Positions 2,695 to 62,859 of a DNA stretch of 64,000 nucleotides are shown here, piece after piece. This stretch comes from Acidobacteriota bacterium (lineage in GTDB: Bacteria > Acidobacteriota > Blastocatellia > Pyrinomonadales > Pyrinomonadaceae), in the NCBI GenBank assembly GCA_003222975.1, contig QHXN01000028.1, positions 13,820-77,819 of the forward strand. The letters run 5' to 3'. Each line of letters opens with the position of its first letter. Within the stretch, counting starts at the first letter, position 1. Below the pieces are notes generated by a model. The model searched no databases. It was given only the letters and a program-made list of their open reading frames with translations, and had not been told where the DNA came from. The position numbers were made by a program, and so were the translations under genes.

Positions 2695-3330
2695 TCAGCT
2701 TTCTTGCGGGCGCGAGTGCTTCATGTGACGCCAGACCCACCATGCGGCGGCGAGGATGAAGGCGATGCCGATGAGGAAGTCGAAGCGGTGGAACCATGTC
2801 TTCAGCGAGTCGTTCTTGTCCCACTGCTCGCCGAGAATCTGTCCGACGTAGGCGAGGCCCAGACACCACGGCAGAGAGCCGAGGAAGGTATAGAGGGTGA
2901 AGCGCGACAGGTTCATGCGCGCCACGCCCGCGGGGAAGGCGATGAAGGTGCGCACGACGGGCAGCAGTCGGCTGGCGAAGACGATGATCTCACCGTAGCG
3001 CGCGAACCAGCGGTCTGCCAGATCGAGGTCGCCGCGCGAGATGAGGACGAAGCGCCCGTACCTTTCTATGAAACGCCGCCCGCCGTATTTGCCCGCCCAG
3101 TAGGCGACGAGCGACCCGACGACGCAGCCCGCGGCCCCGGCCACGGCCACGGCCCAGAGGTTGAACCGCCCCGTGTGCACGAGGTAGCCCGAAAACGGCA
3201 TGATGACCTCCGACGGAAGGGGTATGCATGCCGACTCGATAGCCATCAAAAGCACGACGCCCGCGTAGCCGAGCGTCGAGATCGTCGCCACGATGAAGGC
3301 GGAAAGGATTTCGATTATTCTCGCGACCAA
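2695..3330 (-). CDS. DedA family membrane protein
   Basis: YAGVVLLMAIESACIPLPSEVIMPFSGYL...YGGRRFIERYGRFVLISRGDLDLADRWFARYGEIIVFASRLLPVVRTFIAFPAGVARM is a classic DedA/SNARE-associated pattern. I chose TTG at 3330 because GGAG lies 8 nt upstream. The track start at 3477 would read through the hairpin and the pcm 3' end. Confidence 0.8.
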   Translation of the reverse strand: MVARIIEILSAFIVATISTLGYAGVVLLMAIESACIPLPSEVIMPFSGYLVHTGRFNLWAVAVAGAAGCVVGSLVAYWAGKYGGRRFIERYGRFVLISRGDLDLADRWFARYGEIIVFASRLLPVVRTFIAFPAGVARMNLSRFTLYTFLGSLPWCLGLAYVGQILGEQWDKNDSLKTWFHRFDFLIGIAFILAAAWWVWRHMKHSRPQES

Positions 3331-3347: not shown

Positions 3348-3423
3348 AGTTACAAGTCACAAGTTCAAGGTTCAAAGTTAATTCGGTCTTCAACTTTGAA
3401 CCTTGAACTTGTGACTTGTAACT
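3348..3423. repeat. heptamer-periodic hairpin element (AGTTACA/AGTCACA/AGTTCAA/GGTTCAA)
   Basis: A perfect 32-bp stem pairs 3348-3379 with 3392-3423 around a 12-nt loop. The pcm stop codon (3422-3424) overlaps the foot. Confidence 0.95.
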
Positions 3424-8590: not shown

Positions 8591-9261
8591 TCTTTTCCCT
8601 TCCCTCTGCGGCGGCGCGCAAGCTCACCGCCCAAGGCTTCGAGGGTCAGGCCGCGCTCGACCATCAGCACGAGCAGATGATAGATGAGGTCAGCCGTCTC
8701 GTAGGTCAAAGCCTTAGGGTCGCCGTCCTTCGCCGCGATGATCGTCTCAGCCGACTCCTCGCCGACCTTCTTCAGAATCTTGTTCAGCCCCTTCTCGAAA
8801 AGATACGTGGTGTAAGAGCCTTCCGGCATCTCGCGCCGCCGCCCCGCGATGACACCATAAAGCTTTTCGAGCACAGTGCCGATGTCTTCTTCTTCCGCGC
8901 TCGCGCCCACCGATTTTTGCGCGCCTGCCGTTTGAAGACCTTCAACTTCCTGGTGGAAGCAGGAGACCGCGCCCGTGTGGCAGGCGGGGCCGCGCGGCTC
9001 GACGAGCACGACCAGCGCGTCCGAGTCGCAGTCGAGGCGCACGTCAACGACTCGTTGCGTGTGGCCGGAGGTCGCGCCCTTGTGCCAGAGTTCGGAGCGC
9101 GAGCGCGACCAGAACCACGTCTCGCCCTCCGAGAGCGTGCGGCGCAAGCTCTCCTCGCTCATGTAGGCGAGCGTCAAGACCTCGCGCGTGCGCGCGTCCT
9201 GCACGACCGCGGGTACTAGCCCGCGCTCGTCGAAGCGAACGTCCTCCGCCTTCAAACTCAT
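8587..9261 (-). CDS. hisI: bifunctional phosphoribosyl-AMP cyclohydrolase / phosphoribosyl-ATP pyrophosphatase
   Basis: HisI part: [26 protein letters not shown]...[17 protein letters not shown]...DCDSDALV...CHTG. HisE part: [21 protein letters not shown]...[10 protein letters not shown]. Confidence 0.9.
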
Positions 9262-10025
9262 CGCACCAAGACTCCTCGTTCGCGCAAATACTTTTTCACC
9301 TCGCCGACGGTGAACTCTCCGAAGTGGAAGAGCGACGCCGCCAGCACCGCACTCGCGCCGCCCGCCGTCAGTGCCTCGTAGAAATGTTCGAGCCTGCCCG
9401 CGCCGCCGGACGCGATGACTGGAATACGCACGGCGTCAGCTACCGCGCGCGTCAGCTCGATGTCGTAGCCGTCGCGCGTGCCGTCGCAGTCCATGCTCGT
9501 CAGCAGAATCTCGCCCGCGCCCAACTCCTCGGCTCGCGCCGCCCACTCGACGGCGTCACGCCCGACGGTGCGGCGACCGCCGTGCGTGAAGACCTCCCAG
9601 CCCGCCGACGCGTCGCGCGCGACACGCCGCCGCGCATCAATCGCCACGACCATGCACTGGCTGCCGAACACGCTCGCGCCCTCCGTTATCAACTCCGGGC
9701 GCTCGACCGCCGCGGTGTTGAGAGAAACTTTGTCCGCGCCCCCGCGCAGGACGGCGCGCACGTCCTCAATCGAGTTCAGCCCGCCGCCCACGGTGAACGG
9801 GATGAAGACCTCGTCGGCCACGCGGCGCACGAGTTCGGCGACGATGGCGCGCTTGTCTGCCGACGCGGTGATGTCTAGAAACGTCAGCTCGTCCGCGCCT
9901 TCGCGGTCGTAGCGCTTCCCCTGCTCGACGGGGTCGCCCGCGTCCACGAGCGAGATGAAGCGTATGCCCTTCACGACGCGACCGTTGTTGACATCGAGAC
10001 ACGGGATGATGCGCTTCGCGAGCAT
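9258..10025 (-). CDS. hisF: imidazole glycerol phosphate synthase cyclase subunit HisF
   Basis: [20 protein letters not shown]...[11 protein letters not shown]...PFTVGGGL...[12 protein letters not shown] use ATG 10025. The track N-terminal extension to 10265 is Arg-rich junk overlapping hisH. Confidence 0.92.
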
Positions 10026-10033
10026 TCGACGCC

Positions 10034-10639
10034 TCAGCCTTCCGCGAAATTTTTTAGCAGCCGGAGGCCCGCCGCCTGACTCTTCTCCGGGTGGAACTGA
10101 ACGCCGCAGACCCGCCCGCGCGCGACGACCGAGAAGTATCTCAGGCCGTACTCGGTCTCGCCGATCACCACGTCCTCGTCCGACGCATCGCAGAAGTAAG
10201 AGTGGACGAAGTAGAAAAAAGACTGGCTCTCGATGCCTTCCGCGAGCGCGTGTTCTTTGCGCCACCCGACCTGATTCCAGCCGACCTGCGGCACGCGCAG
10301 ACTCGCGGGGAAGCGTCGCACGCGACCGCGCAGGAAACCGAGGCCGGCGGTGACGCCGAACTCCTCCGACTCCTCAAAGAGCATCTGCATGCCGACGCAG
10401 ACGCCGAGCAGCGGTGTGCCTTCCTCGACGCGCTCGCGCACGAGGCGGTCGAAGCCGCGCTCCGCCAAAGCCTCCATGCACGCGCGGAACGCGCCGACGC
10501 CCGGCAGCACGAGTTTCGACGCCCCGCGCAGCACGCCCTCGTCAGCGCTGACGACCGCCTTGCAGCCCGCCGCGTGGAAAGCCTTCTCGACCGAGCGAAG
10601 GTTCCCCACGCCGTAATCTATGATCGCCACGCGAGCCAA
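10034..10639 (-). CDS. hisH: imidazole glycerol phosphate synthase glutaminase subunit HisH
   Basis: [17 protein letters not shown]...LVLPGVGAF...[10 protein letters not shown]...HSY are class-I amidotransferase (HisH) motifs. Confidence 0.92.
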
Positions 10640-11350: not shown

Positions 11351-11358
11351 AGTTAAAT

Positions 11359-11429
11359 GATGAGTGATGAATGCGGAATGATGAATGATAAGAAGCGTGC
11401 TGCTTTTAATTCATCATTCTGCATTCATC
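11359..11429. repeat. heptamer-periodic hairpin element (ATGATGA/ATGCGGA family)
   Basis: gatgaatgcggaatgatgaat (11366-11386) pairs with attcatcattctgcattcatc (11409-11429) with one mismatch. The hisC stop codon and its last codons (..MNAE*) lie inside the right arm. Confidence 0.8.
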
Positions 11430-12511
11430 GTTTCCTTTCCCTCCTCCGAGAAAATATCTCCTAACGCCGCCAGTAGCTTGTCGTTCTCCGCGGGCGTGCC
11501 GACGCTCAGGCGGAAGTAGTCTTTGAGCATCGGGTAGCCGCTCACGTCGCGGACGAGTATGTCGCGCGCGAGCAGTTCGCGGAAGACGCGCTTCGGCTCT
11601 ATCGCTGAACGCACGACCATGAAGTTCGCGTGCGAGCGCACGGGCGCGAGGCCCGGTACGCGGCGCAAGTTTTCGTAAAGCCGCTCGCGCTCTTGCAGGA
11701 TGCGCCGCACGGTCGGCTTCAGTTCCGACTCGTACAACTCGACGGCGACCTCGGCGGCGGTCTGCGAGAAGGCGTTGAGGTTGTACGGCAGCACGGCCTT
11801 GCCGACTTCGCGCGCGAGTTCCGGCGCGGCCAGCAGGTAGCCGACGCGTAGGGCTGCCAGCCCCATCGCCTTCGAGAAGGTGCGGAAGACGGCGAGGTTC
11901 GAGTGGGCGTAGAGCAGCGGCGCGACCGTCTGGCCGGAGAACTCGAAGTAGGCTTCGTCTATGACGACGATGCCGCGAGTCGCCGCGAGCAGCGATTCGA
12001 GTTCGTCGTGTTCGACGCGGCAGCCCGTGGGGTTGTTCGGAGAACAAAGTATCGTCACGTCCGGCTCTTCGCGCTCTATCGCCTCGCGCAGCGCCCCAAC
12101 GTCGAACTTCAACTCTCCGTCGAGCGGCACGCTCAAGACCTCGCCGCCTAAAACTGTCGCGACCTGTCTGTAGAGCGCGAACGTCGGCTCGCTGATGAGC
12201 ACGCGTCGCCCCTCGCCGACCGTGACCATCAGCGTCGCCTGTATCAACTCGTTCGAGCCGTTGCCCGCGACCACGCCGTCCGCGCGCCACCCCGCGAACG
12301 CCGCCAGCTTCTCGTGCAGGCTCGCGGGCACGAAGTCAGGGTAGCGCGACCACGCTCGCGATTGTATGCGTCGCAGCGTCTCGCGCTTGATCGTCTCCGG
12401 CGCGTCCCAGGGGTTCTCGTTCTGGTTGATCTTCACCGACGCGCGGTCGGGCGAGAGCGTATAAGCCTTCAGCTCGCGCACGCGCGGTTTGATTTTGTCC
12501 AGCGGATTCAT
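11414..12511 (-). CDS. hisC: histidinol-phosphate aminotransferase
   Basis: It shows a class-II aminotransferase pattern (NENPW...YPD...GNGSNELI...SPNNPTG...FRTFSKAMGLAALRVGY) and sits in his operon context. Confidence 0.9.
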   Translation of the reverse strand: MNPLDKIKPRVRELKAYTLSPDRASVKINQNENPWDAPETIKRETLRRIQSRAWSRYPDFVPASLHEKLAAFAGWRADGVVAGNGSNELIQATLMVTVGEGRRVLISEPTFALYRQVATVLGGEVLSVPLDGELKFDVGALREAIEREEPDVTILCSPNNPTGCRVEHDELESLLAATRGIVVIDEAYFEFSGQTVAPLLYAHSNLAVFRTFSKAMGLAALRVGYLLAAPELAREVGKAVLPYNLNAFSQTAAEVAVELYESELKPTVRRILQERERLYENLRRVPGLAPVRSHANFMVVRSAIEPKRVFRELLARDILVRDVSGYPMLKDYFRLSVGTPAENDKLLAALGDIFSEEGKETMNAE

Positions 12512-12512
12512 A

Positions 12513-12580
12513 AGTTCAAAGCTGAAAGTTCAAAGTTGCAAGGCTCAGAGCTTTGAACCTTCAACTTTAAACTTTGAACT
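12513..12580. repeat. heptamer-periodic hairpin element (AGTTCAA family), imperfect
   Basis: agttcaaagctgaaagttcaaagttgcaaggctc pairs with gagctttgaaccttcaactttaaactttgaact. The hisD stop (12579-12581) sits at one foot and the hisC ATG (12511) is 1 nt from the other. Confidence 0.7.
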
Positions 12581-13868
12581 ACTCTGTAAGTCGAATCATA
12601 GCCGACCGCGCGTGCGCGTCTAAGCCTTCGGACTCGGCGAGCGCGGCGATCATGCACGCCGTCTCGTTAAGCTCCTCGCGCGTGTAGCGGATGACGCTCG
12701 TGCGTCGGAGGAAATTGTGGACTCCGAGGGCGGAGGAGAAGCGCGCCGCGCCGCCCGTGGGCAGCACGTGGTTCGGCCCGGCGAAGTAGTCGCCGACCGC
12801 CTCCGGCGTGTGCGCGCCGAAGAAGATCGCGCCCGCGTGACGGACTCGCGCCGCCGCGCCCTCTTCATCGCGCATGTTGATTTCGAGGTGTTCGGGCGCG
12901 AGTTCGTTGACGAGTTCGCAAGCCTCTTCGAGCGAGCCGACGACGAAGACCGCGCCGAAGTCCGCGAGCGAGCACTCGATGATTTTCCGACGGGGGAGGG
13001 TCTCGGCCTGTCGCGCGACTTCGGCGGCGACGCGCCCGGCAAGCTCCGAGTCCGTCGTGACTAAAACGGCGGAGGCGTCCTCGCCGTGTTCGGCCTGCGC
13101 GAGCAGGTCTGCGGCGACGAAGTCTGCGCGCGCCGTCTCGTCCGCGAGCACAACGACCTCGCTCGGCCCGGCGATGGAATCAATCCCGACCGCCCCGAAG
13201 ACGAGCTTCTTCGCGGCGGCCACGTACTTGTTGCCCGGCCCCGTGATGACATCAACGCGCGGAATCGTCTCGGTGCCGTAGGCGAGCGCGGCGACCGCCT
13301 GCGCGCCGCCGACCTGATAAATCTCCGCGACGCCGAGTTCGACGAGCGCGGCGGCGACCGCCGGAGTTTGCGAGAGCGTGCGCGGCGGCGTGACGACGGC
13401 GATGCGTTTGACGCCGGCGACCTGCGCGGGCACGACGTTCATCACGACCGACGAAGGGTAGCTCGCCGTCCCTCCCGGCACGTATAGTCCCGCTGCGTCC
13501 ACCGGCGAGACGCGCTGACCTAAACGCACGCCGCGTCCCGTCTCCATCTCCCAAGATTCGGCGCGCTCGCGCTCGTGGAAGGCCCGGACGTTGCGTATGC
13601 TCGCGCGCAAAGCTCCGAGCACGCGACTGTCAACGCGCGCCGCCGACTCGCGCAGCGCCGACTCTTCGACGCGCAGCTCGCACGCGCGCAGGCGCACGCC
13701 GTCGAAGCGCGCCGTGTAGTCGAGCAGCGCCGCGTCTCCGCGCCGCCTCACCTCCTCGATTATCTCCGCGGCTGCGCTCAACAGTCCGGCGTCCGCCGCG
13801 ATGCGACGCTCTTTAATGCGCGCGAGCTTCGCCTGTCGCGCCCGCCCGTCACTGATAACTTCGATCAA
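12579..13868 (-). CDS. hisD: histidinol dehydrogenase
   Basis: LYVPGGTASYPSSVVMN...GPGNKYVAAAKK...IDSIAGPSEV...QAEHGEDA...APEHLE...GDYFAGPNHVLPT. Confidence 0.93.
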   Translation of the reverse strand: MIEVISDGRARQAKLARIKERRIAADAGLLSAAAEIIEEVRRRGDAALLDYTARFDGVRLRACELRVEESALRESAARVDSRVLGALRASIRNVRAFHERERAESWEMETGRGVRLGQRVSPVDAAGLYVPGGTASYPSSVVMNVVPAQVAGVKRIAVVTPPRTLSQTPAVAAALVELGVAEIYQVGGAQAVAALAYGTETIPRVDVITGPGNKYVAAAKKLVFGAVGIDSIAGPSEVVVLADETARADFVAADLLAQAEHGEDASAVLVTTDSELAGRVAAEVARQAETLPRRKIIECSLADFGAVFVVGSLEEACELVNELAPEHLEINMRDEEGAAARVRHAGAIFFGAHTPEAVGDYFAGPNHVLPTGGAARFSSALGVHNFLRRTSVIRYTREELNETACMIAALAESEGLDAHARSAMIRLTE

Positions 13869-14503
13869 GCGCCCTTCCCTCTCTCTTCGACCGCGCGTCC
13901 GAGCGCCCTGATGATTTCGCCGACAGCCGCGGCTTTCAACTGGTAGCTCGCCCGGTTGACGACGAAGCGGGCAGTTGACTCCGTGATCGTCTCGACGACG
14001 ACGAGGCCGTTCTCGGCGAGCGTGCGTCCCGTCTCGACGAGGTCAACAATGCAGTCGGCCAGTCCCGTGACGGGCGCGAGTTCGACCGAGCCGGAAAGCT
14101 CGATGATCTCGACCGGCACGCCGCGCGAGCCGAAGTGCCGGGCGGCGATGCGCGGGTACTTGGTCGCGACGTGGAGCACGCCCGCTCGCCCGATTCCCGC
14201 GTCCTCGCGCGCCGCGACGGCGATGCGGCAGTAAGCGATCTTCAGGTCGAGCGGCTGCAAAACGTCGGCCCCCGATTCGAGCAGAACGTCGCGACCGACG
14301 ACGCCGCAGTCGGCGATGCCGTGCTCGACATAGACCGGCACGTCCGCCGGCTTGACGAAGACGAAGCGGCAGCGCCCGCCCTCGTCCTCGACGGCGAGCC
14401 GCCGCGACGCCAGCGCCTCCCGGCTCGCGCGCACGCCGGCGCGCGCCAGCAGTTCGAGCGCGTCCTGCTGCAACCTCCCTTTGGCGATGGCAATCGTCAA
14501 CAT
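13865..14503 (-). CDS. hisG: ATP phosphoribosyltransferase, short form
   Basis: MLTIAIAKGRLQQDALELL...VFVKPADVPVYVEHGIADCGVVGRDVL...DLVETGRTLAENGL. I use ATG 14503, because the track extension translates the hairpin. It has a 4-nt overlap with hisD. Confidence 0.9.
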   Translation of the reverse strand: MLTIAIAKGRLQQDALELLARAGVRASREALASRRLAVEDEGGRCRFVFVKPADVPVYVEHGIADCGVVGRDVLLESGADVLQPLDLKIAYCRIAVAAREDAGIGRAGVLHVATKYPRIAARHFGSRGVPVEIIELSGSVELAPVTGLADCIVDLVETGRTLAENGLVVVETITESTARFVVNRASYQLKAAAVGEIIRALGRAVEERGKGA

Positions 14504-14505
14504 CT

Positions 14506-14603
14506 GAATTTTTGATTTTAGATTTTTGATTTTAGATTGTCTGCCGACGATGAGAGACGCGCTGTCTTTCAATCGCAAATCAAAAATCTAAAATCAAAAA
14601 TTC
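14506..14603. repeat. heptamer-periodic hairpin element (TTTTTGA/TTTTAGA)
   Basis: gaatttttgattttagatttttgattt (from 14506) pairs with aaatcaaaaatctaaaatcaaaaattc (to 14603), about 27 bp, with a loop of about 40 nt. It lies between the hisZ stop and the hisG ATG, and the ATG is 2 nt from the foot. Confidence 0.9.
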
Positions 14604-14622: not shown

Positions 14623-15735
14623 TCAATCCTCTAATTCCAACTTGATCCTCTCGCCGCGCGCGCGCCTCAGCTTCGCCTCTCGCAAAAGTTCGCCCGTGCC
14701 CGCGGCCTTGACGAGCGAGGTGATGTCGGCCTTGCCGTTCTTCAGCTCGAAGTCGCCGCGCGAGATGACCTCGGTGATGGCGTCGAGGTCGAGCACGAAG
14801 CCCGTGGCCGGCTCGCGCCGCCCGAAGTTGGCCGTCAGCTCGTCGTAGCGCCCGCCGCTCCCGACGCGCGCGCCCGCGCCCTCGGCGTAAATCTTGAAGA
14901 CCAGGCCGGTGTAGTAATCCAGCCCCGACACGTCGCCCAGGTCAATCTCGAAATTGTCCGCGAGTCCCAGCGCCTCGATGATGCTCCAGGTCTTTTCGAG
15001 CGCTTCGAGCGCGGCACTCGCGCGCAGACCCGTCGCGACGCCGCGCGCCTCCTCCAGAACTCCGCGCTTGCCCGACAGGCGCGTCAGGCGCGCGGCCAGC
15101 GGCGGTACGTCAGCGCCGCCTGACGAGTGCTCGGCCAGGAGGCTTTCGAGTTCGGCGGCGGCGCGCGAGTCAACGAGGCGGCGCATCCGCTCGCGCCCTG
15201 CCTCGTCCAGCTTTAGCTGTTCGGCCACGCCGTTGAAGACGCCGACGTGGTTGAGCGTGACGCAGTAGCGAAGTTCGAGGCGCGCGAGCACCTCGGCGGC
15301 GATGGCGAGCACTTCGAGGTCTGCCCCGGCGCTCCCCGTTCCGATCAGTTCGCAGCCGAGCTGCCGCCCCTGCCGCCTCCACTCGACGTGCGACCGAGGC
15401 CGCTGGCGGAAGACCGACGCGGCGTAGCAGAAGCGCAAGGGGCGCTCTTCGGATGCGAACAGAGTCGCGGCGGCGCGCGCCACCGAGGAGGTCACGTCGG
15501 GCCGCAGCGCGAGCAGACGCCCGTCCGTGTCCGTGAAGCGGAAGCCGCGGCTCGCCTCCTCGCGCCCCATGCCACGCTCGAACAGGACGTAGTAGTCCAC
15601 GGAGGGCGTCGCGATCTCCTCGTAGCCCCAGCCGTCGAAGACACTCATCACCGCGTCCTCGACCGCGCGCCGCAGACGCGCCTCACGCCCGAAGTAGTAG
15701 CGCATCCCGCCGGGAATTTTTGAAAGCGGCTCCAT
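14623..15735 (-). CDS. hisZ: ATP phosphoribosyltransferase regulatory subunit (HisRS paralog)
   Basis: Class-II aaRS-like protein: GMRYYFGREARL...GYEEIATPSVDYYVLF...FRFTDTDGRLLALRPDVTSSVAR...RFCYAASVFR...GGRYDEL. It sits directly upstream of a short-form hisG. Confidence 0.88.
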   Translation of the reverse strand: MEPLSKIPGGMRYYFGREARLRRAVEDAVMSVFDGWGYEEIATPSVDYYVLFERGMGREEASRGFRFTDTDGRLLALRPDVTSSVARAAATLFASEERPLRFCYAASVFRQRPRSHVEWRRQGRQLGCELIGTGSAGADLEVLAIAAEVLARLELRYCVTLNHVGVFNGVAEQLKLDEAGRERMRRLVDSRAAAELESLLAEHSSGGADVPPLAARLTRLSGKRGVLEEARGVATGLRASAALEALEKTWSIIEALGLADNFEIDLGDVSGLDYYTGLVFKIYAEGAGARVGSGGRYDELTANFGRREPATGFVLDLDAITEVISRGDFELKNGKADITSLVKAAGTGELLREAKLRRARGERIKLELED

Positions 15736-15737
15736 AA

Positions 15738-15823
15738 GGGAATGATGAATGATGAATGCGGAATGATGAATTAAGAGAAGCCGGCGGCTTTCAATTCTTC
15801 ATTCTTCATTCCGCATTCATCAC
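15738..15823. repeat. heptamer-periodic hairpin element (ATGATGA/ATGCGGA family)
   Basis: gggaatgatgaatgatgaatgcggaatgatgaatt pairs with aattcttcattcttcattccgcattcatcac. It sits between the his attenuator terminator and the hisZ ATG, and its foot is 2 nt from the ATG. Confidence 0.8.
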
Positions 15824-15826
15824 TAA

Positions 15827-15866
15827 ATGCAAAACGCTGCCGGGCGAGTCGCGTCGCTGGCAGCGT
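15827..15866 (-). terminator. his-leader attenuator terminator
   Basis: The reverse strand reads ACGCTGCC-agcgacgcgactcgccc-GGCAGCGT followed by TTTTGCATTT. The 5' half (GCTGCC) can alternatively pair with GGCAGC inside the leader ORF. Confidence 0.7.
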
Positions 15867-15908
15867 GTGTGTCGGTGAAAGCTTTCGTGCGCTCGTCGCT
15901 TCGGCGCG

Positions 15909-15995
15909 TCAGGAGTCACACCACACGCGGCTGCCCGCATGGCGATGGTGGTTGCCATGATGATGCAGCGTCCGTATGTGGATGCGTTGTGCCAT
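15909..15995 (-). CDS. histidine-rich leader peptide (28 aa) of the his operon
   Basis: My translation is MAQRIHIRTLHHHGNHHRHAGSRVWCDS*, with 7 His in 28 residues including HHH and HH runs. AGGAAG lies 10 nt upstream of the ATG. The ORF is too short for the ORF track. Confidence 0.7.
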   Translation of the reverse strand: MAQRIHIRTLHHHGNHHRHAGSRVWCDS

Positions 15996-16032
15996 TCTCC
16001 GAAACTTCCTAAGGGCTTCTCAGGCCGCGTCC

Positions 16033-16062
16033 GTTATAACCGACCGCTTTGAAGTCTGTCAA
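16033..16062 (-). promoter_or_regulatory. candidate sigma-70 promoter of the his leader/operon
   Basis: On the reverse strand, TTGACA (16062-16057) is followed by an 18-nt spacer and TATAAC (16038-16033). It lies about 40 nt upstream of the leader ATG. Confidence 0.4.
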
Positions 16063-16156
16063 ACTGTGCCTGAACAGAACCGCGAGCGGGTCAGCCTGCC
16101 GATGCGCGGCCTACGCTCTGAAATCACGCCCACTCGCCACCGCTCGCGGCTCTGAC

Positions 16157-17332
16157 TTAGTGGCGCGGAGCGTAGTAGCCGACGCGCGTGGTGACTTCGT
16201 AGTCGTGGCCGGGCACTTCGACGCGGACGCGTCGGAAGCGACCGTCGCGGGCGGGGTTGGTGGGCGTGTAGTAGAGCGCGTACTGGTGGCGCAGCTCGTC
16301 GGCGATCTCCGCGTAAACGCGGTCGAGCGCGTCGAAGCTCTGCGGCTTGTAGAGCCGCCCGCCCGTGGCGCGCGTCAGTTCCGCGAGGTTACGCTCGCTC
16401 GCGTCGAGCACGCGCAAAGATTCGCGCAGGTCGCCGATGCGGAGCTGGTTGAAGCGCACCGTCGAGTCCGACCCGGCGAGCATGCTGTCCAGCTCGGCCT
16501 GCTTGCGCGTGCGCTCGATCTCCGTGTTCGCGATGACATAGACGGCGACCTGCGATTCGAGCAGGGCGCGCATGGCCGCGTCGGCGGTGGCCGAGCCGCG
16601 GTTGCTGTCAATGCCGTCGCTCAGGACGACGAGGGCGCGGCGGCGCTCGTCGCGTTGGAACTGCTCGCGCGCCGAGAGCAGGAGCGCGTCGTTGAAGCGC
16701 GTGAAGACGCCGGTCGAAAGACGCGCGAGCGCGCGGTGCAGTTGCAGACGGCTCTTCGTCCAGTCGAGCAGAAGCTCCACGCGGTCGTCGAACTTGATGA
16801 GGCAGAAGCGGTCGTCCGGCGAGAGCCGCCCGGCGAACTGCTCGGCGGCGCGTCGGAAGTCCTCGAAACTGTCGGCCACAGACGAAGAGGCGTCAACGAG
16901 CAGCGCGGCGTCCACGGGCACTTGGCGGAGCGAGAGATCGCTCAGGGGTTGCTCGCGCCCGTCCTCGAAGACCCGGAAGTCTTTGCGCGCGAGGTCGGCG
17001 ACGAGCTGCCCCGACGAGTCGCGCACGGTCGCGGGCACGAGAACCTCGGAGGCGTTGATCGTAACGACCTCGTCGTCGCCGACCGCCTCCGCGCCCTGTT
17101 TACTCTTCTGGCCGGACTGCGACTGCACGCTGCCCGTGCCGTCCTCGCGCGAGGCTTTGCGCGGGCGCGTGTGATCCTGCGTGAAGGACGCGGGCGCGAC
17201 CGCGAGGAGCGCGAGCAGGCAAACGAAGAGGAGTAGGGACGCGCGCGCGCGCCGCGCCGCCGTGAAACTTACGCGCGCCGCCGAAGTGACACTTGCAGAA
17301 GTTTTCTTTCTCCACGCGACCGACGCACGCAT
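16157..17332 (-). CDS. VWA-domain secreted protein (VWFA-related Acidobacterial domain type)
   Basis: It has a signal/TM segment LLLFVCLLALLAVAP. This is followed by ...VLVPATVRDSSGQLVADLARKDFRVFEDGREQPL...AALLVDASSSV...LSDGIDS..., a MIDAS-like DxSxS. The layout matches the TIGR03436-type family as I remember it. Confidence 0.75.
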   Translation of the reverse strand: MRASVAWRKKTSASVTSAARVSFTAARRARASLLLFVCLLALLAVAPASFTQDHTRPRKASREDGTGSVQSQSGQKSKQGAEAVGDDEVVTINASEVLVPATVRDSSGQLVADLARKDFRVFEDGREQPLSDLSLRQVPVDAALLVDASSSVADSFEDFRRAAEQFAGRLSPDDRFCLIKFDDRVELLLDWTKSRLQLHRALARLSTGVFTRFNDALLLSAREQFQRDERRRALVVLSDGIDSNRGSATADAAMRALLESQVAVYVIANTEIERTRKQAELDSMLAGSDSTVRFNQLRIGDLRESLRVLDASERNLAELTRATGGRLYKPQSFDALDRVYAEIADELRHQYALYYTPTNPARDGRFRRVRVEVPGHDYEVTTRVGYYAPRH

Positions 17333-17351: not shown

Positions 17352-17505
17352 TTCATTCATTCTTGTGTGTGAGGCGGCGGGAGGTTAACCACAGAGACAC
17401 AGGGGACTCAGAGGAAGCACAGAGGATTGGATTTCTCTGTGCCGTCTCTGTGTTCTCTGTGTCTCTGTGGTTAGCTTCAACGTCCGCCACGCCCAAGAAT
17501 GAATA
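17352..17505. repeat. nested heptamer-rich hairpin element (CACAGAG family) with outer ATTCATTC stem
   Basis: The inner arms are ttaaccacagagacacagg... (17385-17425) and ...ctgtgtctctgtggttag (17435-17474). The outer arms are attcattcattcttg...ggcggcgg and ccgccac...caagaatgaat. Together they fill nearly the whole intergenic gap. Confidence 0.75.
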
Positions 17506-18298: not shown

Positions 18299-18350
18299 CT
18301 CCACGCACCTCAACCCGTAAACAAGCGCGAATGAGCCGGACATTCCAGAA

Positions 18351-18435
18351 GAAGTGATGAATGCGGAATGATGAATGATGAATTTAAAGCAGGCTGTCTT
18401 TCATTCATCATTCATCATTCCGCATTCATCACTTC
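18351..18435. repeat. heptamer-periodic hairpin element (GTGATGA/ATGCGGA/ATGATGA)
   Basis: A perfect 33-bp stem pairs 18351-18383 with 18403-18435. It abuts the SLT gene stop codon (18436-18438). Confidence 0.95.
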
Positions 18436-19530
18436 TTACTTGACTTCCTCGTAGCGCGCGGTAATGCGGCGGACGTAGTTGCGCGTCTCGCGGAAGGGGG
18501 GCACGCGGTAGCCGTAGCGCGTGACGTTGCCCTCGCCCGCGTTGTAGCCCGCGAGCACGAGGTCAACGCGGTTGTCGAAGCGCGCCAGAAGCTCTTTGAG
18601 GTAGTGCGTCCCGGCGTTGACGTTCTGCGCGGGGTCGTGCGGGTTGCGCACGCCGAAGCGCGCAGACGTGCCCGGCATCAACTGCATCAGGCCGCGCGCG
18701 CCCGATGGGCTGACCGCGCGCGAGTTGAAGTGCGACTCCTGCTCCATGACGCAGAAGACGAGGTAAGGGTCAACGCCGTAGCGCGAGCCGTTCTGCTTGA
18801 TGAGCGAGTCGAGGCGGGCGCTCCCCGTCGTCCAGCGCCACTCGCGCCGACGCCCCTTGCCGCCCGCGGCGTCGGCCACTTCCGTATTCGAGAGCTGCAC
18901 GCGCTCGACGTGGTCAACGCGCGCGCGCTCGACGAAGGTCGAGATGTTGTCGCGCCTGTACCAGACCCCTTCCGCCTTCTCGTCCGCCTCGTCCACCTCC
19001 ATCTTCGCCCCGCCGACGAGGTAAATCCACACCTCCTGCTCGCCCTCTCCTGGCTCCTTCGTGCCGCCGCCACCCGTTTTCAAGACCGCGGCGGCGCTCG
19101 CATTCTTCGCATTCGTGTCGTGCGTAGGCTTCGCCTTCTCGTCCGTAGGCTTCGACGCGCGCCCCGCGCCCGCCGCCTTCACGACCTCTTTCACGCGCGA
19201 GCGCTCGACCAGATAGGTTACGCCGCCGCGCCTGTACCAGACGCCCTGCGCGTCTTCCCAAGCCTCGTCAACCTCCATCGTCGTCCCGTCCGTCAGGCGC
19301 AACTGATCTGCGCGCGCGCCCGTCGGAAACGAGAGGAGGACGATGACGAACAGCGCGGCCCCCTTTAAGAAATTGCGGATTGCGAATTGCGAATTGCGGA
19401 ACGGCGATGGCGGTGTAATACATAGGCCGGACGCCGGACGCGGACGAGAAGCGCACTGTCTTCCGATCCGCAATCCGCGATCCGCAATCCGCAATCGGAC
19501 TGTTTCAGAGTTGCAGCGGGTTCGCATCAA
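18436..19530 (-). CDS. lytic transglycosylase (SLT domain) with duplicated N-terminal domain; start codon uncertain
   Basis: The C-terminal SLT motifs are VMEQESHFNSRAVSPSGARGLMQLMPGT...AGYNAGEGNV. There are two N-terminal repeats (..MEVDEAWEDAQGVWYRR.. and ..MEVDEADEKAEGVWYRR..). The signal-like AALFVIVLLSFPTGARA has no in-frame ATG/GTG/TTG after the hairpin, so the only ORF start (19530) reads through the hairpin element. Confidence 0.7.
   Translation of the reverse strand: MMRTRCNSETVRLRIADRGLRIGRQCASRPRPASGLCITPPSPFRNSQFAIRNFLKGAALFVIVLLSFPTGARADQLRLTDGTTMEVDEAWEDAQGVWYRRGGVTYLVERSRVKEVVKAAGAGRASKPTDEKAKPTHDTNAKNASAAAVLKTGGGGTKEPGEGEQEVWIYLVGGAKMEVDEADEKAEGVWYRRDNISTFVERARVDHVERVQLSNTEVADAAGGKGRRREWRWTTGSARLDSLIKQNGSRYGVDPYLVFCVMEQESHFNSRAVSPSGARGLMQLMPGTSARFGVRNPHDPAQNVNAGTHYLKELLARFDNRVDLVLAGYNAGEGNVTRYGYRVPPFRETRNYVRRITARYEEVK
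19372..19495. repeat. heptamer-periodic hairpin element (ATTGCGG/ATTGCGA)
   Basis: attgcggattgcgaattgcgaattgcgga (19372-19400) pairs with tccgatccgcaatccgcgatccgcaatccgcaat (19462-19495). The loop is about 60 nt. Confidence 0.8.
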
Positions 19531-22915: not shown

Positions 22916-23023
22916 CGTGAACCGTGAACCGTAAACCGTGACAAATTGAAAACCCGCTGCCCGTCAACCGTGAACTATAAAGTTGCTCCCATCTGGTCAC
23001 GGTTCACGGTTCACGGTTTACGG
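22916..23023. repeat. heptamer-periodic hairpin element (CGTGAAC/CGTAAAC)
   Basis: cgtgaaccgtgaaccgtaaaccgtgac (22916-22942) pairs with gtcacggttcacggttcacggtttacgg (22996-23023). It lies between the tadB stop (23027) and the tadC ATG (22912). Confidence 0.85.
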
Positions 23024-23989: not shown

Positions 23990-23997
23990 GGCTTTAA

Positions 23998-24128
23998 TCA
24001 GTAGTCAGTAGTCAGTAGTCAGTAGTCAGTAGTCAGTAGATTTTGTCTCTCAAGTCTGTCGAGTCTGGGTAGCCTGCGCGTGGTAGAAGGCAGGGAGCTT
24101 TTCTACTGGCTACTGGCTACTGACTACT
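23998..24128. repeat. heptamer-periodic hairpin element, (TCAGTAG)x6 arm
   Basis: Six perfect tandem TCAGTAG units (23998-24039) face tctactggctactggctactgactact (24102-24128). The cpaF stop codon (24124-24126) lies inside the right arm. Confidence 0.85.
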
Positions 24129-25479
24129 CAAAAAAGACTCGCGGCAGTTGCATGCCGTACTGCTTGAGCCGCTCGGCGAAGCGCGGGCGCACGCCCGTGG
24201 CCTTGAACTGGCCGACGACCTTGCCCTCCTTGTCAACGCCGCGGCGCTCGAAGAGGAATATCTCCTGCATCGTGATCACGTCGCCCTCCATGCCCGTGAT
24301 CTCGGAGATGGAAGTGACGCGGCGCGTGCCGTCGGAGAGGCGCGCGACCTGTATGACGAGGTCAATGGCCGAGGCGATCTGCGAGCGCATGGCCTTCTCG
24401 GAGAGGCGCATGCCGGTCATCTGGATCATCGTCTCGACGCGGGCGAGGGCGTCGCGCGGCGTGTTGGCGTGAATCGTCGTCAAAGAGCCGTCGTGGCCCG
24501 TGTTCATAGCCTGGAGCATGTCTATGGCCTCGCCGCCTCTGACCTCGCCGATGACGATGCGGTCGGGCCGCATGCGCAGGGCGTTGCGCACGAGGTCGCG
24601 CTGCGTGATCTCGCCTTTGCCCTCGATGTTGGGGGGCCGCGTCTCAAGGCGGACGACGTGCGGCTGCTGCAACTGCAACTCCGCCGAGTCTTCAATCGTC
24701 ACGATGCGCTGGTCTTCGGGGATGTAGGCCGAAAGCGCGTTCAAGAGCGTCGTCTTGCCCGCGCCCGTGCCGCCGGAGATGAGGACGTTCAGGCGCGCGT
24801 GGACGCACATGCGGAACATCTCGGCGATGTCGCGCGTGAGCGCGCCCTTCTCGATGAGCATGTCAATGCGGAGCGGGTCGGCGGCGAAGCGCCGGATGGA
24901 CATCACTGGGCCGTCTAAAGCGAGCGGCGGGATGATGGCGTTGACGCGCGAGCCGTCCTTGAGGCGCGCGTCAACCATCGGCGAGGACTCGTCAATGCGC
25001 CGGCCAACGCTTGAGACGATGCGCTCGATGACTCTCATCAGGTGCTCGTTGTCCTTGAAGGTTACGTCGGAGCGTTCGAGCCTGCCGGCGCGCTCGACGT
25101 AGATTTGGGAGGGCGAGTTGATGAGGATGTCGCAGACCGTGGGGTCGGCCAGGAGCGGCTCAAGGGGGCCAAGGCCGAACAGCTCGTGGCGCACCTCTTC
25201 TACCAGTCGCTCGCGCTCGATTGTCGAGAGCGGCGTGCTCTCGACGTGCAGCAAATCTTCGGCGAGGCGCGCGACCTCCGAATGGAGTTGTTCGGGGTCG
25301 AGCTGGCCGAGCTTCTTCAAGTCCATCCGGTTGATGATGGCGCGGTGCAGGCGCGACTTCATCTCCTGGAAGACCTGCTGGCGGTTGACGCCCGGCTCCT
25401 CGGCAGCGCCGCCGCCACGCGCGGACGGCGCGCCGCCCGGCGGCATCGTCTCTTTGATTAGTCGTTCGCGGAGTGACAT
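24124..25479 (-). CDS. cpaF: Tad pilus secretion ATPase CpaF/TadA
   Basis: Walker A is [16 protein letters not shown], with Asp box [12 protein letters not shown], Walker [16 protein letters not shown] and His box [15 protein letters not shown]. This is the VirB11/CpaF family. Confidence 0.93.
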
Positions 25480-25495: not shown

Positions 25496-25568
25496 AGAGT
25501 TCAGTTCAGAGTTCAAGCTTTAGCTTGTTTCGTTCAGAACGCACGCTGAAGCGTGAACTCTGAACCCT
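25496..25568. repeat. heptamer-rich hairpin element (AGAGTTC/GTTCAGA), imperfect
   Basis: gttcagagttcaagc (25504-25518) pairs with gcgtgaactctgaac (25551-25565). Flanking GTTCAG repeats are present. It lies between the cpaE stop and the cpaF ATG. Confidence 0.55.
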
Positions 25569-30870: not shown

Positions 30871-30993
30871 TTAGCCGTTAGCTGTTAGCTGTTGGCTGTT
30901 AGCTTTTTTTAGTCCGTCAGCCAGCCGCTTTGCCTTCAACACTCAACCTTTGTGAGCGGGAAAGCTAACGGCTAATCGCTATCGGCTAATCGC
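30871..30993. repeat. heptamer-periodic hairpin element (TTAGCCG/TTAGCTG)
   Basis: ttagccgttagctgttagctgttggctgttagc (30871-30903) pairs with gctaacggctaatcgctatcggctaatcgc (30964-30993). The loop is about 60 nt. It abuts the cpaB stop (30995). Confidence 0.7.
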
Positions 30994-30994
30994 T

Positions 30995-52742: not shown

Positions 52743-53405
52743 TTGGCGGCAGCCGCATTCTACGATCTCGAAGGGACGCTGGTGAGCACGAACCTCGTGC
52801 ACACGCTCGGCTTCTACGCGCGCAACCAGCAGGGCTTGATGCGCTCCCTGCGCAAGAGCGCCGCCACCCTCGTCAGCATCCCGCTCTTCGCCGCCGCCGA
52901 CTCCTACAGCCGGATGGTCTTCAACGACATCTTCTTCCGCCGCTACAAGGGTGAGCCGGAAGACCGCCTGCGCTTCTTCGCCGGGGAACTGTTCGAGAAC
53001 GTCCTCCGGCCCGGCGTCTTCCCCGGCGCGATTGAGCTGATTCAGAAGTCGCGCAGCCTCGGCCTGCGCCAAGTCGTCGTCACCGGCGCACTCGATTTTT
53101 CGGTCGAGCCGCTGATGCGCTACCTCGGCGTTGACGACTTCGTCGCCAACCGCCTTGAGTTCGTCAACGGCGTCGCCACCGGAAGACTGCTGCCGCCCGT
53201 GCTCGCGTCGGCCACGAAGGCATCGTGGATTCGCACCTACGCCGAGCGCGAGGGGCTAAACCTGAACGAGTCCTACGCCTACAGCGACAGCATGAGCGAC
53301 CTGCCCATGCTCTCCATCGTCGGCCACCCCGCGGCGGTCAACCCGGACATGCGGCTCCGCCAGACGGCGCTGCACCACGACTGGCCGATACTTAATCTGA
53401 AATGA
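52743..53405 (+). CDS. HAD-IB family hydrolase
   Basis: AAFYDLEGTLVSTN is HAD motif I with Glu at the second acidic position. It is followed by ...VVVTGALDFSVEPL... and YSDSMSDLPML. The start is TTG, with GGAGG 7 nt upstream. Confidence 0.75.
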   Translation: MAAAAFYDLEGTLVSTNLVHTLGFYARNQQGLMRSLRKSAATLVSIPLFAAADSYSRMVFNDIFFRRYKGEPEDRLRFFAGELFENVLRPGVFPGAIELIQKSRSLGLRQVVVTGALDFSVEPLMRYLGVDDFVANRLEFVNGVATGRLLPPVLASATKASWIRTYAEREGLNLNESYAYSDSMSDLPMLSIVGHPAAVNPDMRLRQTALHHDWPILNLK

Positions 53406-53483
53406 GTTCCAAGTTCCAAGTTCAAGGTTCAAAGTTAAATGCTTTGGCCTCGGACTTTGAACTTTGAACTTTGAACTTTGAAC
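53406..53483. repeat. heptamer-periodic hairpin element (GTTCCAA/GTTCAAG/GTTCAAA)
   Basis: gttccaagttccaagttcaaggttcaaagtt (53406-53436) pairs with actttgaactttgaactttgaactttgaac (53454-53483). It starts 1 nt after the HAD stop and ends 2 nt before the next ATG. Confidence 0.85.
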
Positions 53484-53485
53484 TG

Positions 53486-55084
53486 ATGGCTTTACAACTA
53501 AGACGCAAAGTTCACGAGTCGGTCGTCTTTATTGACCGCGACAGCGCGCCGCGCATCATCTCTTCGGGGATGGATTTCCAACTCGAAGACCTGCCCGTCG
53601 GCACGCGCGTCATCTACCCGAACGCGCCCATCAAGGGGTTGCCGAACCGCGAGGCCGCGATCCGCTACGCGCTGAACCACCCGCACGACTGCGACCCGCT
53701 CTACGCGCAGTTGGAGCCGGGCATGAAGGTGACGGTCGCGATAGACGACATCTCGATGCCCCTGCCGCCGATGCGGACGCCCGACATACGGCAGACGGCG
53801 CTCGAAATCCTGCTCGACCTTTTGCACGCCAACGGCGTTGACGACGTGCACCTCATCATCGCCATCTCGCTCCACCGCCGCATGACCGAGTCGGAGATCA
53901 AGCGCATGGTCGGCCCGCGCGTCTTCAAAGAGTTCTGGCCCGAACGCCTCTACAACCACGACGCCGAAGACCCCGACCGGATGGTCACCATCGGCGAGAC
54001 GCGCCACAAGGAGGTGCTGCGCCTCAACCGGCGCGCCGCCGAGAGCGATCTCCTCATCTACCTCAACTACAACTTCGTCCCGATGAACGGCGGCCACAAG
54101 TCGGTCGCCGTCGGCCTGTGCGACTACGAGTCCCTGCGCCCGCACCACGAGCCGCAGACCATACTCGACTCGGACAGCTACATGGACCCCGCGAACTCGG
54201 AGCTGACGCGCAAGATCAACCGCATGGGAGAGCTTGTGGACGAGCACCTCAACGTCTTCCACATCGAGACGACTGTCAACAACCAGATGTTCAAGGGCGA
54301 GCTTTCCTTCCTCACCAAAAACGAGGACGAGTTCTCGGCCTACGACCGCATGAAGTACGAGGCCATGCGCTTCACGATGTCGAAGATGCCGCGCGCCGCG
54401 CAGCGCAAGATGTACAACGCGCTCACCTCCGACTACGAGATGATCGCCGTCGAGGCCGGAAGGACAGACCCCGTCCACGAACGCATCATCGAAAAATCAA
54501 TGCAGCAGTACGTCGTCCCCATCGAAGGCCAGTGCGATATACTCATCTGCCCCATCCCCGAAATCTCGCCCTACAACGTCTATTCGACCCTGAACCCGCT
54601 GCTCGTGCAGGTGATGGCCTTGGGCTACCACTTCAACATGTACCGCGGCAAGCCCCTGCTGAAGAAAGGCGGCGTGCTCATACTTCACCACCCATGCTAC
54701 GACGAGTTCGACCACGTGCAGCATCCGAGCTACATCGAGTTCTTCAACCGGCTGCTTCCCGAAACGCGCGACTCCCACACCCTGCGCGAGAAGTACGAGC
54801 GCGAGTTCGCGACGAATCCGAGTTACATAGAGATGTACCGCCGCGGCCACGCCTACCACGGCGCGCACCCTTTTTATATGTGGTACTGGGGCGAGAACGG
54901 GCGCGCGCACGTGGGCCGCGTCATCGCCGCGGGCGCGGAGAACGCGCACGTCCCCGCCGCGCTTGGGTGGGAGCGCGCCGACAACCTGACCGAGGCCATC
55001 GCCATGGCCCGCAGCTACGTGGGCCGCTCCGCGCAGATCACGATGCTCCACCAGCCCGTGATCGCCATCTGCGATATGAGTTAA
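53486..55084 (+). CDS. LarA-N-terminal-domain (DUF2088)-like protein
   Basis: I use ATG 53486, because the track TTG 53471 lies in the hairpin. ...[20 protein letters not shown]...[21 protein letters not shown]... resembles the lactate-racemase N-domain family. This is weak, memory-based recognition. Confidence 0.5.
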
Positions 55085-59587: not shown

Positions 59588-59656
59588 AGTTCCAAGTTCA
59601 AGGTTCAAAGTCGGCGGCCTTGAACTTTGAACCTTGAACTTGGAACTTTGAACTTT
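59588..59656. repeat. heptamer-periodic hairpin element (AGTTCCA/AGTTCAA/GGTTCAA)
   Basis: A perfect 23-bp stem pairs 59588-59610 with 59625-59647, followed by extra TTGAACT units up to 59656. It lies between the ElbD-like stop (59580-82) and the SDR ATG (59658). Confidence 0.95.
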
Positions 59657-62765: not shown

Positions 62766-62859
62766 TTAACCACCGCAGGCACAGAGGGCACGGAGACGGC
62801 ACAGAAGTCCTGTTTTCTCTGCGAAACCTCCGTGCCCTCTGTGCCTGCGGTGGTTTAAT
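62766..62859. repeat. hairpin element of the CACAGAG family
   Basis: The 27-bp perfect stem accaccgcaggcacagagggcacggag (in 62766-62795) pairs with ctccgtgccctctgtgcctgcggtggt (in 62829-62859). It shares the TTAACCAC...GTGGTTA ends with the 17385 element. Confidence 0.9.

Follow-up and report, generated by a model that had tools for sequence, protein, structure and literature searches.

A predicted histidine leader-peptide attenuator ahead of hisZ-first histidine operons in Acidobacteriota

In enterobacteria, the hisL leader (RF00514, ahead of hisGDCBHAFI) places a short open reading frame (ORF) in which His codons are clustered just ahead of the histidine operon, and ribosome position decides between mutually exclusive antiterminator and terminator hairpins with one common strand. 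In the E. coli trpL leader, four segments can form an anti-antiterminator (1:2), an antiterminator (2:3), and a terminator (3:4); the terminator is thermodynamically favored and the decision is kinetic. Histidine leader peptides have also been predicted in Actinobacteria and Firmicutes (PMC2965389, PMC4833913, PMC9413887), and those of Firmicutes include leaders that precede operons beginning with hisZ, in the Bacillus cereus group, Peptostreptococcaceae including C. difficile, and Erysipelotrichales (PMC2965389, PMC9413887, PMC4833913). As of 2010, almost no predicted acidobacterial attenuator had an assigned function (PMC2965389). Here we analyze a 64,000-nucleotide (nt) stretch from an Acidobacteriota bacterium of the Pyrinomonadaceae (GenBank assembly GCA_003222975.1, contig QHXN01000028.1, positions 13,820 to 77,819), called the window below. 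On its minus strand, immediately ahead of a hisZ-first histidine operon, lies an element that is very probably a ribosome-mediated leader-peptide transcription attenuator, predicted to tune the operon to charged tRNA-His.

The leader ORF (15995..15909, minus strand; ORF list and direct read of the strand) has 28 codons plus TGA, reads ATG GCA CAA CGC ATC CAC ATA CGG ACG CTG CAT CAT CAT GGC AAC CAC CAT CGC CAT GCG GGC AGC CGC GTG TGG TGT GAC TCC TGA, and encodes the peptide MAQRIHIRTLHHHGNHHRHAGSRVWCDS. Seven codons specify His, six of them inside the regulatory codons 11-19 (CAT CAT CAT GGC AAC CAC CAT CGC CAT, 6 His of 9; 15939..15965, minus strand), which occupy the apical part of the segment 1:2 hairpin described below. 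A Shine-Dalgarno-like AGGAAG lies at 16010-16005, 9 nt 5' of the leader ATG, and the leader stop codon is 173 nt from the hisZ ATG (15735). Farther upstream, a -35 box TTGACA (16062-16057), an 18-nt spacer, and a -10 box TATAAC (16038-16033) can be read directly on the strand and would form the leader promoter (16033..16062, minus). An earlier note on this DNA, made from the sequence alone, had described an unannotated 28-codon ORF with 7 His codons (6 within 9), about 175 nt upstream of hisZ, with AGGAAG upstream and a candidate TTGACA-18-TATAAC promoter at 16062-16033; every one of these features is present where it had been placed, and the boxes' activity as a promoter is putative.

The leader His run is more than a chance or composition effect. 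For a six-frame translation with 2.3% His, nine-residue windows with at least six His are expected 0.0015 times per 64 kb, and the one other window with at least five His of nine in these 64 kb falls out of frame within a real membrane-protein gene. An exact look-up of two leader peptides in about 15 billion protein sequences returned no called protein, so the peptide is unannotated. The choice of His codon is also distinctive: CAT makes up 5 of 7 His codons in the window leader and 125 of 260 in 33 leaders, versus 4 of 68 (CAC 64, CAT 4) in 11 neighboring genes (Fisher p = 1.4e-4 and p = 7.7e-12, respectively). This enrichment fits a translation-speed sensor, and part of the bias could instead come from CAUGG/CCAUG apical pairing. 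The leader of E. coli hisL mixes CAC and CAU codons, as the acidobacterial leader does; hisL, however, has seven consecutive His, whereas the acidobacterial run is interspersed (HHHGNHHRH; seven His in 28 codons).

Between the ORF and hisZ, folding and alignment identify an intrinsic terminator (15825..15866, minus) composed of the stem ACGCUGCC (15866-15859)/GGCAGCGU (15841-15834), an inner GCGA/UCGC stem, and then UUUGCAUUU. Folded alone (15868-15831), the hairpin reaches -19.7 kcal/mol (z = -3.8; 0 of 200 shuffles as stable), in agreement with the earlier description of a canonical terminator ending in TTTTG at 15866-15827. The terminator 5' arm, ACGCUGCC, is the 3' part of segment 3 (15855..15879, minus; UUCACCGACACACACGCUGCCAGCG; fold and duplex calculation), the strand shared by antiterminator and terminator. 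Its other partner is segment 2, the antiterminator 5' arm (UGCGGGCAGCCGCGUGUGGUGUGAC; 15915..15939, minus), which comprises ORF nt 57-81 (codons 19-27) and could be masked by a ribosome at the stop codon. The duplex of ORF nt 57-81 with segment 3 (15879-15855) has a calculated energy of -27.7 kcal/mol and is reproduced by folding 15940-15859, in which the last codons of the ORF pair with the 5' flank and 5' arm of the terminator and enclose a GC hairpin (total -30.2 kcal/mol); the earlier proposal that the 3' part of the ORF pairs with the strand holding the 5' half of the terminator thus holds in both calculations.

When the ORF is folded alone, codons 4-12 pair with codons 20-27 (-30.1 kcal/mol) and the His codons fall in the apical part. 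Segment 1 (ORF nt 10-34, codons 4-12; 15962..15986, minus) is a candidate anti-antiterminator arm with segment 2 as its partner, predicted by minimum-free-energy folds and, with the alignment described below, moderately supported. Overlooked in the earlier note, it would complete a four-segment layout of 1:2, 2:3, and 3:4, alike in its logic to trpL. The two leaders differ in that the regulatory codons lie inside segment 1 in trpL and between segments 1 and 2 here, in that the amino acid here is histidine, and in that the acidobacterial 1:2 pairing is moderately supported. Relative to hisL, the placement of the His run in the apical loop between segments 1 and 2 is likewise different, and the acidobacterial element carries an extra GC hairpin inside the antiterminator loop. 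This predicted middle hairpin (GCGCC-loop-GGCGC; 15889..15907, minus) sits just 3' of the stop codon and may be a pause or spacer element.

We followed the element into related genomes with a HisZ protein scan, one genome per species, which yielded 34 loci from metagenome-assembled genomes (MAGs) of Pyrinomonadaceae/Acidobacteriota and one Vicinamibacteria locus. The related set comprises 32 of these loci; L034, which has no upstream DNA, and the Vicinamibacteria locus L035, 39% identical, were excluded. An intact His-rich ORF of 23-31 codons lies 178-355 nt upstream of hisZ in 31 of the 32 loci, with the consensus MTHxPHTAAHHHHGHHGHARGRVWGDS. The 32nd, L033 from a long-read MAG (2800-3000), was considered as a locus without the ORF and rejected as such: the same leader DNA is present with its frame broken by indels, the HisZ match is also fragmented, and the indels are likely assembly errors rather than loss of the element. 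Leader element, promoter, and terminator are thus present at all 32 loci, L033 having the broken ORF. Also common to the related loci are a GCGCC...GGCGC hairpin 3' of the stop codon, the segment UUUCACCAGCACACGCCGC, and a terminator of the form ...GACAC-loop-GUGUC...GCGGCGUUUU. The Vicinamibacteria locus has no leader, and its hisZ overlaps the upstream gene. In a separate search for HisZ homologues, the best 120 matches are all close relatives, at least 66% identical.

A metagenome scan with a HisZ alignment added 80 further loci, with HisZ 53-75% identical, and 65 of them carry a His-rich leader. Most of the 15 loci without a scored leader are short of upstream DNA, 2 have a leader that scored below threshold or lay at the edge of the search window, and at least 3 have a matching terminator without a detected ORF; L066 is the only one of the 80 clearly without the element. 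The leader peptides fall into at least four unrelated types, A to D, exemplified by MSF..THHHH..HHHANHHWHQGSALAVVIR, MFRTDHGHDAHWHHHHGGGLAIVFLR, and MKI...HHRHxxGSAPC. The GCGCC...GGCGC hairpin, with a variable loop, is found in nearly all type-A loci, and its stem is almost invariant and therefore gives no covariation. In 63 of the 65 metagenome leader loci a strong terminator (median -22 kcal/mol; typically CCCGCUGCC-loop-GGCAGCGGG-U4-8) follows the leader stop by 25-76 nt, mostly 25-57. The peptide and stems, whose conservation upstream of orthologous his operons had been named beforehand as a point on which the attenuator reading could fail, are conserved in the 32 related and these 65 metagenome loci.

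The pairing of the ORF with the terminator is shared as well. Over 95 loci, the best ORF partner of the terminator 5' arm begins a median of 3 nt after the last His codon, and the offset lies within the -12 to +11 nt bins in 77 of the 95. The duplex of ORF and terminator arm has an energy of -17.8 kcal/mol versus -13.0 kcal/mol with shuffled ORFs, and 56 of the 95 loci reach the 5% level; for 11 representatives, antiterminator duplexes worked out explicitly have energies between -20.7 and -31.4 kcal/mol. These values come from the whole ORF: a first version of the test on the last 36 nt of each ORF gave weak z-scores, because long ORFs carry the pairing segment further upstream. That differing peptides each encode their own complement of the terminator arm right after the His run is the strongest argument for a selected arrangement.

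Covariation was assessed in an alignment of 30 leaders, for which RNAalifold recovers the terminator. The terminator has 94% of cells paired and compensatory changes at 4 pairs, the antiterminator has 87.7% of cells paired and 5 pairs with double changes, and the segment 1:2 helices are 78-91% paired with few double changes. For the 1:2 plus terminator structure, 87.8% of cells are paired versus 25-58% with slid partners, and 9 pairs show double changes. Column 169, in segment 3, covaries both with column 75 in segment 2 (GC 17, AU 5, GU 3) and with column 197 in segment 4 (CG 19, UG 6, UA 4). Such changes lend the alternative pairings moderate support, short of proof.

To represent ribosome position, we masked an assumed footprint of -15 to +12 nt around the A-site codon. 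The moment of decision was represented by transcripts ending just before the terminator 3' arm, with the probability that segment 3 is paired with the ORF 3' end as the measure. Under this assumed footprint, the probability in the window is 0.36 for ribosome-free RNA, 0.81-0.86 for a stall at His codons 11-13, and 0.00 for a ribosome at the stop codon; across 33 loci, the respective median values are 0.35, 0.71 (stall at the best His codon), and 0.00. The earlier note had proposed folding the leader with and without constraints, and the outcome is divided: cut transcripts switch with ribosome position, whereas the full leader stays in the terminator form. Conservation and three-way covariation support the hisL-type ribosome attenuation that the earlier note had read into the locus, and the cut-transcript simulation agrees with it.

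The computed features—ORF, terminator, alternative pairings, conservation, partial covariation, and rare-codon bias—suggest the following course of events. Transcription would start about 30 nt upstream of the 28-codon ORF. Segment 3 (15879-15855) could then pair either with segment 2, as the antiterminator, or with segment 4, as the terminator with its U-tract, the two being mutually exclusive. With His-tRNA plentiful, the ribosome would reach the UGA and hide segment 2, the terminator would form, and RNA polymerase would halt before hisZ. With His-tRNA scarce, the ribosome would stall at the His codons, best at codons 11-13 and mostly at the rare CAU, and would hide segment 1 (codons 4-10), which otherwise would hold segment 2. 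Segment 2, so freed, would capture the emerging segment 3, block the terminator, and allow read-through into hisZGDCBHF-IE-N. The inferred parts of this scheme are that the promoter is active, that ribosomes stall, that transcripts terminate in vivo, that control is kinetic, and that transcription and translation are coupled in this organism.

Several observations weigh against this interpretation, the support for which is computational throughout. Full-leader equilibrium folding favors the terminator in nearly every masked ribosome state, so the switch would work only under kinetic control; in the classical attenuators of E. coli trp and his, the terminator is likewise favored at equilibrium. 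A stall at His codons 16, 17, or 19 masks part of segment 2 and gives 0.36, no gain over ribosome-free RNA, and the ribosome-free state itself retains that antiterminator probability despite the predicted segment 1:2 pairing. Six loci (L009, L011, L018, L027, L030, and L032) deviate in the simulation. The whole-leader, ORF, and segment 2-3 folds are not above dinucleotide shuffles (z = -0.4 to -0.9; 65% GC), so single-sequence energies prove little alone. Close relationship among the sequences keeps covariation modest, and the structures themselves came from this set of sequences. The window has an interrupted U-tract (UUUUGCAUUU). Some long-ORF types have their stop codon about 45 nt beyond segment 2, and in these leaders masking by a terminating ribosome cannot explain everything.

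Some of these points would also fit a leader that senses histidine and acts through Rho access, mRNA decay, or hisZ translation initiation, with the hairpin and U-tract playing a minor part. Whatever the ribosome state, equilibrium folding favors the terminator; the U-tract of the window is broken; and in compact loci hisZ, which lacks a recognizable Shine-Dalgarno, starts 10-14 nt past the terminator stem, where the hairpin could occlude the start. We nevertheless consider this output quite unlikely. The signature of an intrinsic terminator, a GC-rich hairpin followed by 4-8 U, is kept in 63 of the 65 metagenome leader loci and in all type-A loci, and in the window and about half of the loci the hisZ ATG is set apart from the terminator by 80-200 nt of unrelated hairpin DNA, so start-site occlusion cannot be general. 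In another alternative, the ORF would encode a small His-rich peptide with a function of its own, such as metal binding, under a separate promoter and terminator; the his operon would be transcribed separately, and the place of the ORF next to hisZ would be incidental. Peptide length and part of the sequence (e.g. ...GRVWGDS) are indeed conserved, and the leader does have its own promoter and terminator; yet the peptides differ completely across types A to D, which have in common only a His run, a location ahead of hisZ, and a terminator. The conserved C terminus is encoded by the very RNA segment that forms the duplex with the terminator arm, and the RNA constraint accounts for it. A well-expressed protein would also avoid the rare CAT that the leader uses, neither of the two leader peptides looked up is called as a protein, and in compact loci, where the hisZ ATG falls 10-14 nt past the terminator stem in the U-rich tail, a separate hisZ promoter has no room. 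A small functional peptide is accordingly very improbable.

We assign a similarly slight probability to a switch run by uncharged tRNA-His in the manner of a T-box, by a histidine riboswitch, or by an RNA-binding protein, with the His codons incidental. Firmicutes and Actinobacteria often regulate his genes through T-boxes (PMC9413887), and the conserved middle hairpin (15889-15907) is still without an assigned role. Against such a sensor, a cmscan of 15400-16400 at E <= 10 returned neither His_leader (RF00514) nor T-box (RF00230), the only matches to Rfam families being spurious miRNA/snoRNA hits on the heptamer hairpin described below; the RNA between ORF and terminator is short (25-76 nt) and variable; and about 97 loci, whose peptides otherwise differ, repeat the His run, although 6 His in 9 codons has a chance expectation of only 0.0015. 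T-box, riboswitch, and functional small protein were each considered and rejected on the Rfam, peptide-divergence, and His-run evidence. A gathering-threshold Rfam scan of the whole window gave one match, a tRNA gene at 2530-2603.

Leader-peptide attenuation therefore remains the preferred reading of the locus, and its nearest described counterparts are the hisZ-first attenuators of Firmicutes, which have a leader peptide with 3-5 or more His codons, a terminator/antiterminator pair, and hisZ as the first gene, and which are likewise known from comparative genomics only. They differ in belonging to another phylum and in not being in Rfam, and the likeness is one of described layout. Differences from enterobacterial hisL extend to the first regulated gene (hisZ here, hisG there), the acidobacterial host, and the lack of an RF00514 match. 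It has been argued that leaders of such a kind arise repeatedly (PMC2965389), and a repeated origin would fit an independent origin in acidobacteria.

Around the leader, the promoter pattern TTGACA-17/18-TATAA[C/G/A] was found by regular expression in 29 of 33 loci, 8-39 nt (mostly 22-39) 5' of the leader ATG. At L006 and L012 the -10 box ends 8 nt before the leader ATG, such that the mRNA for the leader peptide would have almost no 5' untranslated region, or none. A built-in promoter/terminator scan of the window missed both the leader promoter and the terminator, because its rules accept only -10 boxes with T as the sixth base and only loops of 3-8 nt. The 5' untranslated region contains a hairpin, CCUGAG-loop-CUUAGG (16008..16024, minus), whose 3' arm overlaps AGGAAG; at -6.9 kcal/mol it is no better than shuffles, and at other loci inspection by eye weakly suggests a GC-rich hairpin of differing sequence at the same position. 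The gene upstream of the his promoter encodes an acidobacterial VWA-domain protein. Between its stop codon and the his promoter (16063-16156), we noted by eye an inverted repeat, CCGCGAGCGG ... CCGCUCGCGG followed by UUCUGUU, which may be the terminator of the VWA-domain gene.

Downstream, NCBIfam equivalog models match all nine genes of the operon in the order hisZ-G-D-C-B-H-F-IE-N, on the minus strand down to 7784, in keeping with the order hisZGDCBHF-IE-N given earlier. The first gene, hisZ (14623..15735, minus; NCBIfam equivalog), encodes PYS83850.1, a HisZ from an Acidobacteria MAG. No recognizable Shine-Dalgarno was seen 5' of hisZ in the window (15736-15750, ..AUUCCCUUAUG) or at L015, L017, L020, and L028. 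No hisA lies between hisH and hisF (9258-10639). The longest hisF ORF, of 335 aa, begins 80 codons ahead of the HisF domain and overlaps hisH, so the true start of hisF is probably near 10025. In the interval 13865-14603, the listed hisG ORF begins at a TTG at 14578, inside a heptamer hairpin (14506-14603), and the HisG model matches from residue 27; the true hisG start is therefore probably 3' of that hairpin.

Heptamer hairpins of this kind recur through the window. At least 15 intergenic hairpins are present, each arm consisting of 3-6 tandem heptamers that face an inverted copy: 3348-3423, 11356-11429, 12507-12580, 14506-14603, 15743-15822, 17381-17478, 18349-18437, 19372-19495, 22916-23022, 23992-24139, 25504-25565, 30873-30994, 53402-53487, 59588-59647, and 62768-62855. 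The heptamer varies by site (AATGATG, TTCAAAG, ATTTTAG, TCAGTAG, AATTGCG, CGTGAAC, TTAGCTG, and AGTTCAA, among others), and the hairpins may resemble the STRR heptamer repeats of cyanobacteria. Four lie in spacers of the his operon, the one at 15743-15822 (-40.1 kcal/mol by folding) between the terminator and hisZ, together with three more. The earlier note had singled out a heptamer hairpin between attenuator and hisZ as an oddity; it is there, but two findings rule it out as an attenuator component: it is one member of an intergenic family spread across the genome, and roughly half of the orthologous loci lack it.

Where an orthologous locus does have a hairpin between terminator and hisZ, as about half of them do, the heptamer is particular to that locus. 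Across L001-L032 and L041-L120, this spacer is a hairpin hot spot in which the heptamer or 14-mer differs per locus (e.g. AGCTAAC at L004, GATGAGT at L026, ACTGACG at L019, and CAACTGACCACGGA at L029), and at L074 the hairpin takes up the greater part of the 330 nt examined ahead of hisZ. The segment 2915-3000 of L030, the closest relative (HisZ 92% identical), is orthologous to the hairpin at 15738-15826; many arm positions differ, yet the pairing is nearly perfect in both, with -42.5 kcal/mol in L030 and -40.1 kcal/mol in the window. The two arms seem to change together, through compensatory evolution or templated renewal.

Full-text literature searches returned no report of leader-peptide attenuation in Acidobacteria, with the broad survey of Lopatovskaya et al. 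2010 (Mol Biol 44:128) lying outside their coverage. The earlier description of the finding as new or under-described stands to that extent; the principle and hisZ-first leaders were already known, and, with His leader peptides already reported in Actinobacteria and Firmicutes, the mechanism extends beyond the Proteobacteria in which the earlier note had mainly placed it, and the novelty is one of lineage, not principle. Understanding of the mechanism itself is unchanged, and a specialist would not be surprised. A bolder reading, which we hold only tentatively and think doubtful on balance, is that the attenuator arose independently in Acidobacteriota and pervades a large uncultured soil lineage (HisZ identity down to 53%), with at least four unrelated peptides each evolving an antiterminator arm after the His run and with sensitivity tuned by CAU, a codon avoided elsewhere. 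If true, it would be the first evidence of tight transcription-translation coupling and leader-peptide control in the phylum, and further layers, such as pausing at the conserved GC hairpin past the stop codon or modulation of hisZ translation by the fast-evolving heptamer hairpin, would set the element apart from hisL as a variant of its own.

Few bacteria are as abundant in soil as the Acidobacteriota, and the predicted attenuator would be the first concrete cis-regulatory RNA for amino-acid biosynthesis in Pyrinomonadaceae and their relatives, conserved and readily recognized. Annotation pipelines miss it, there being no Rfam model and the peptide being uncalled. The roughly 97 natural variants, of several peptide types, offer material for the study of how leader-peptide attenuators diversify. 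For the biology of the family, such an attenuator would imply that transcription and translation are coupled in Pyrinomonadaceae and relatives.

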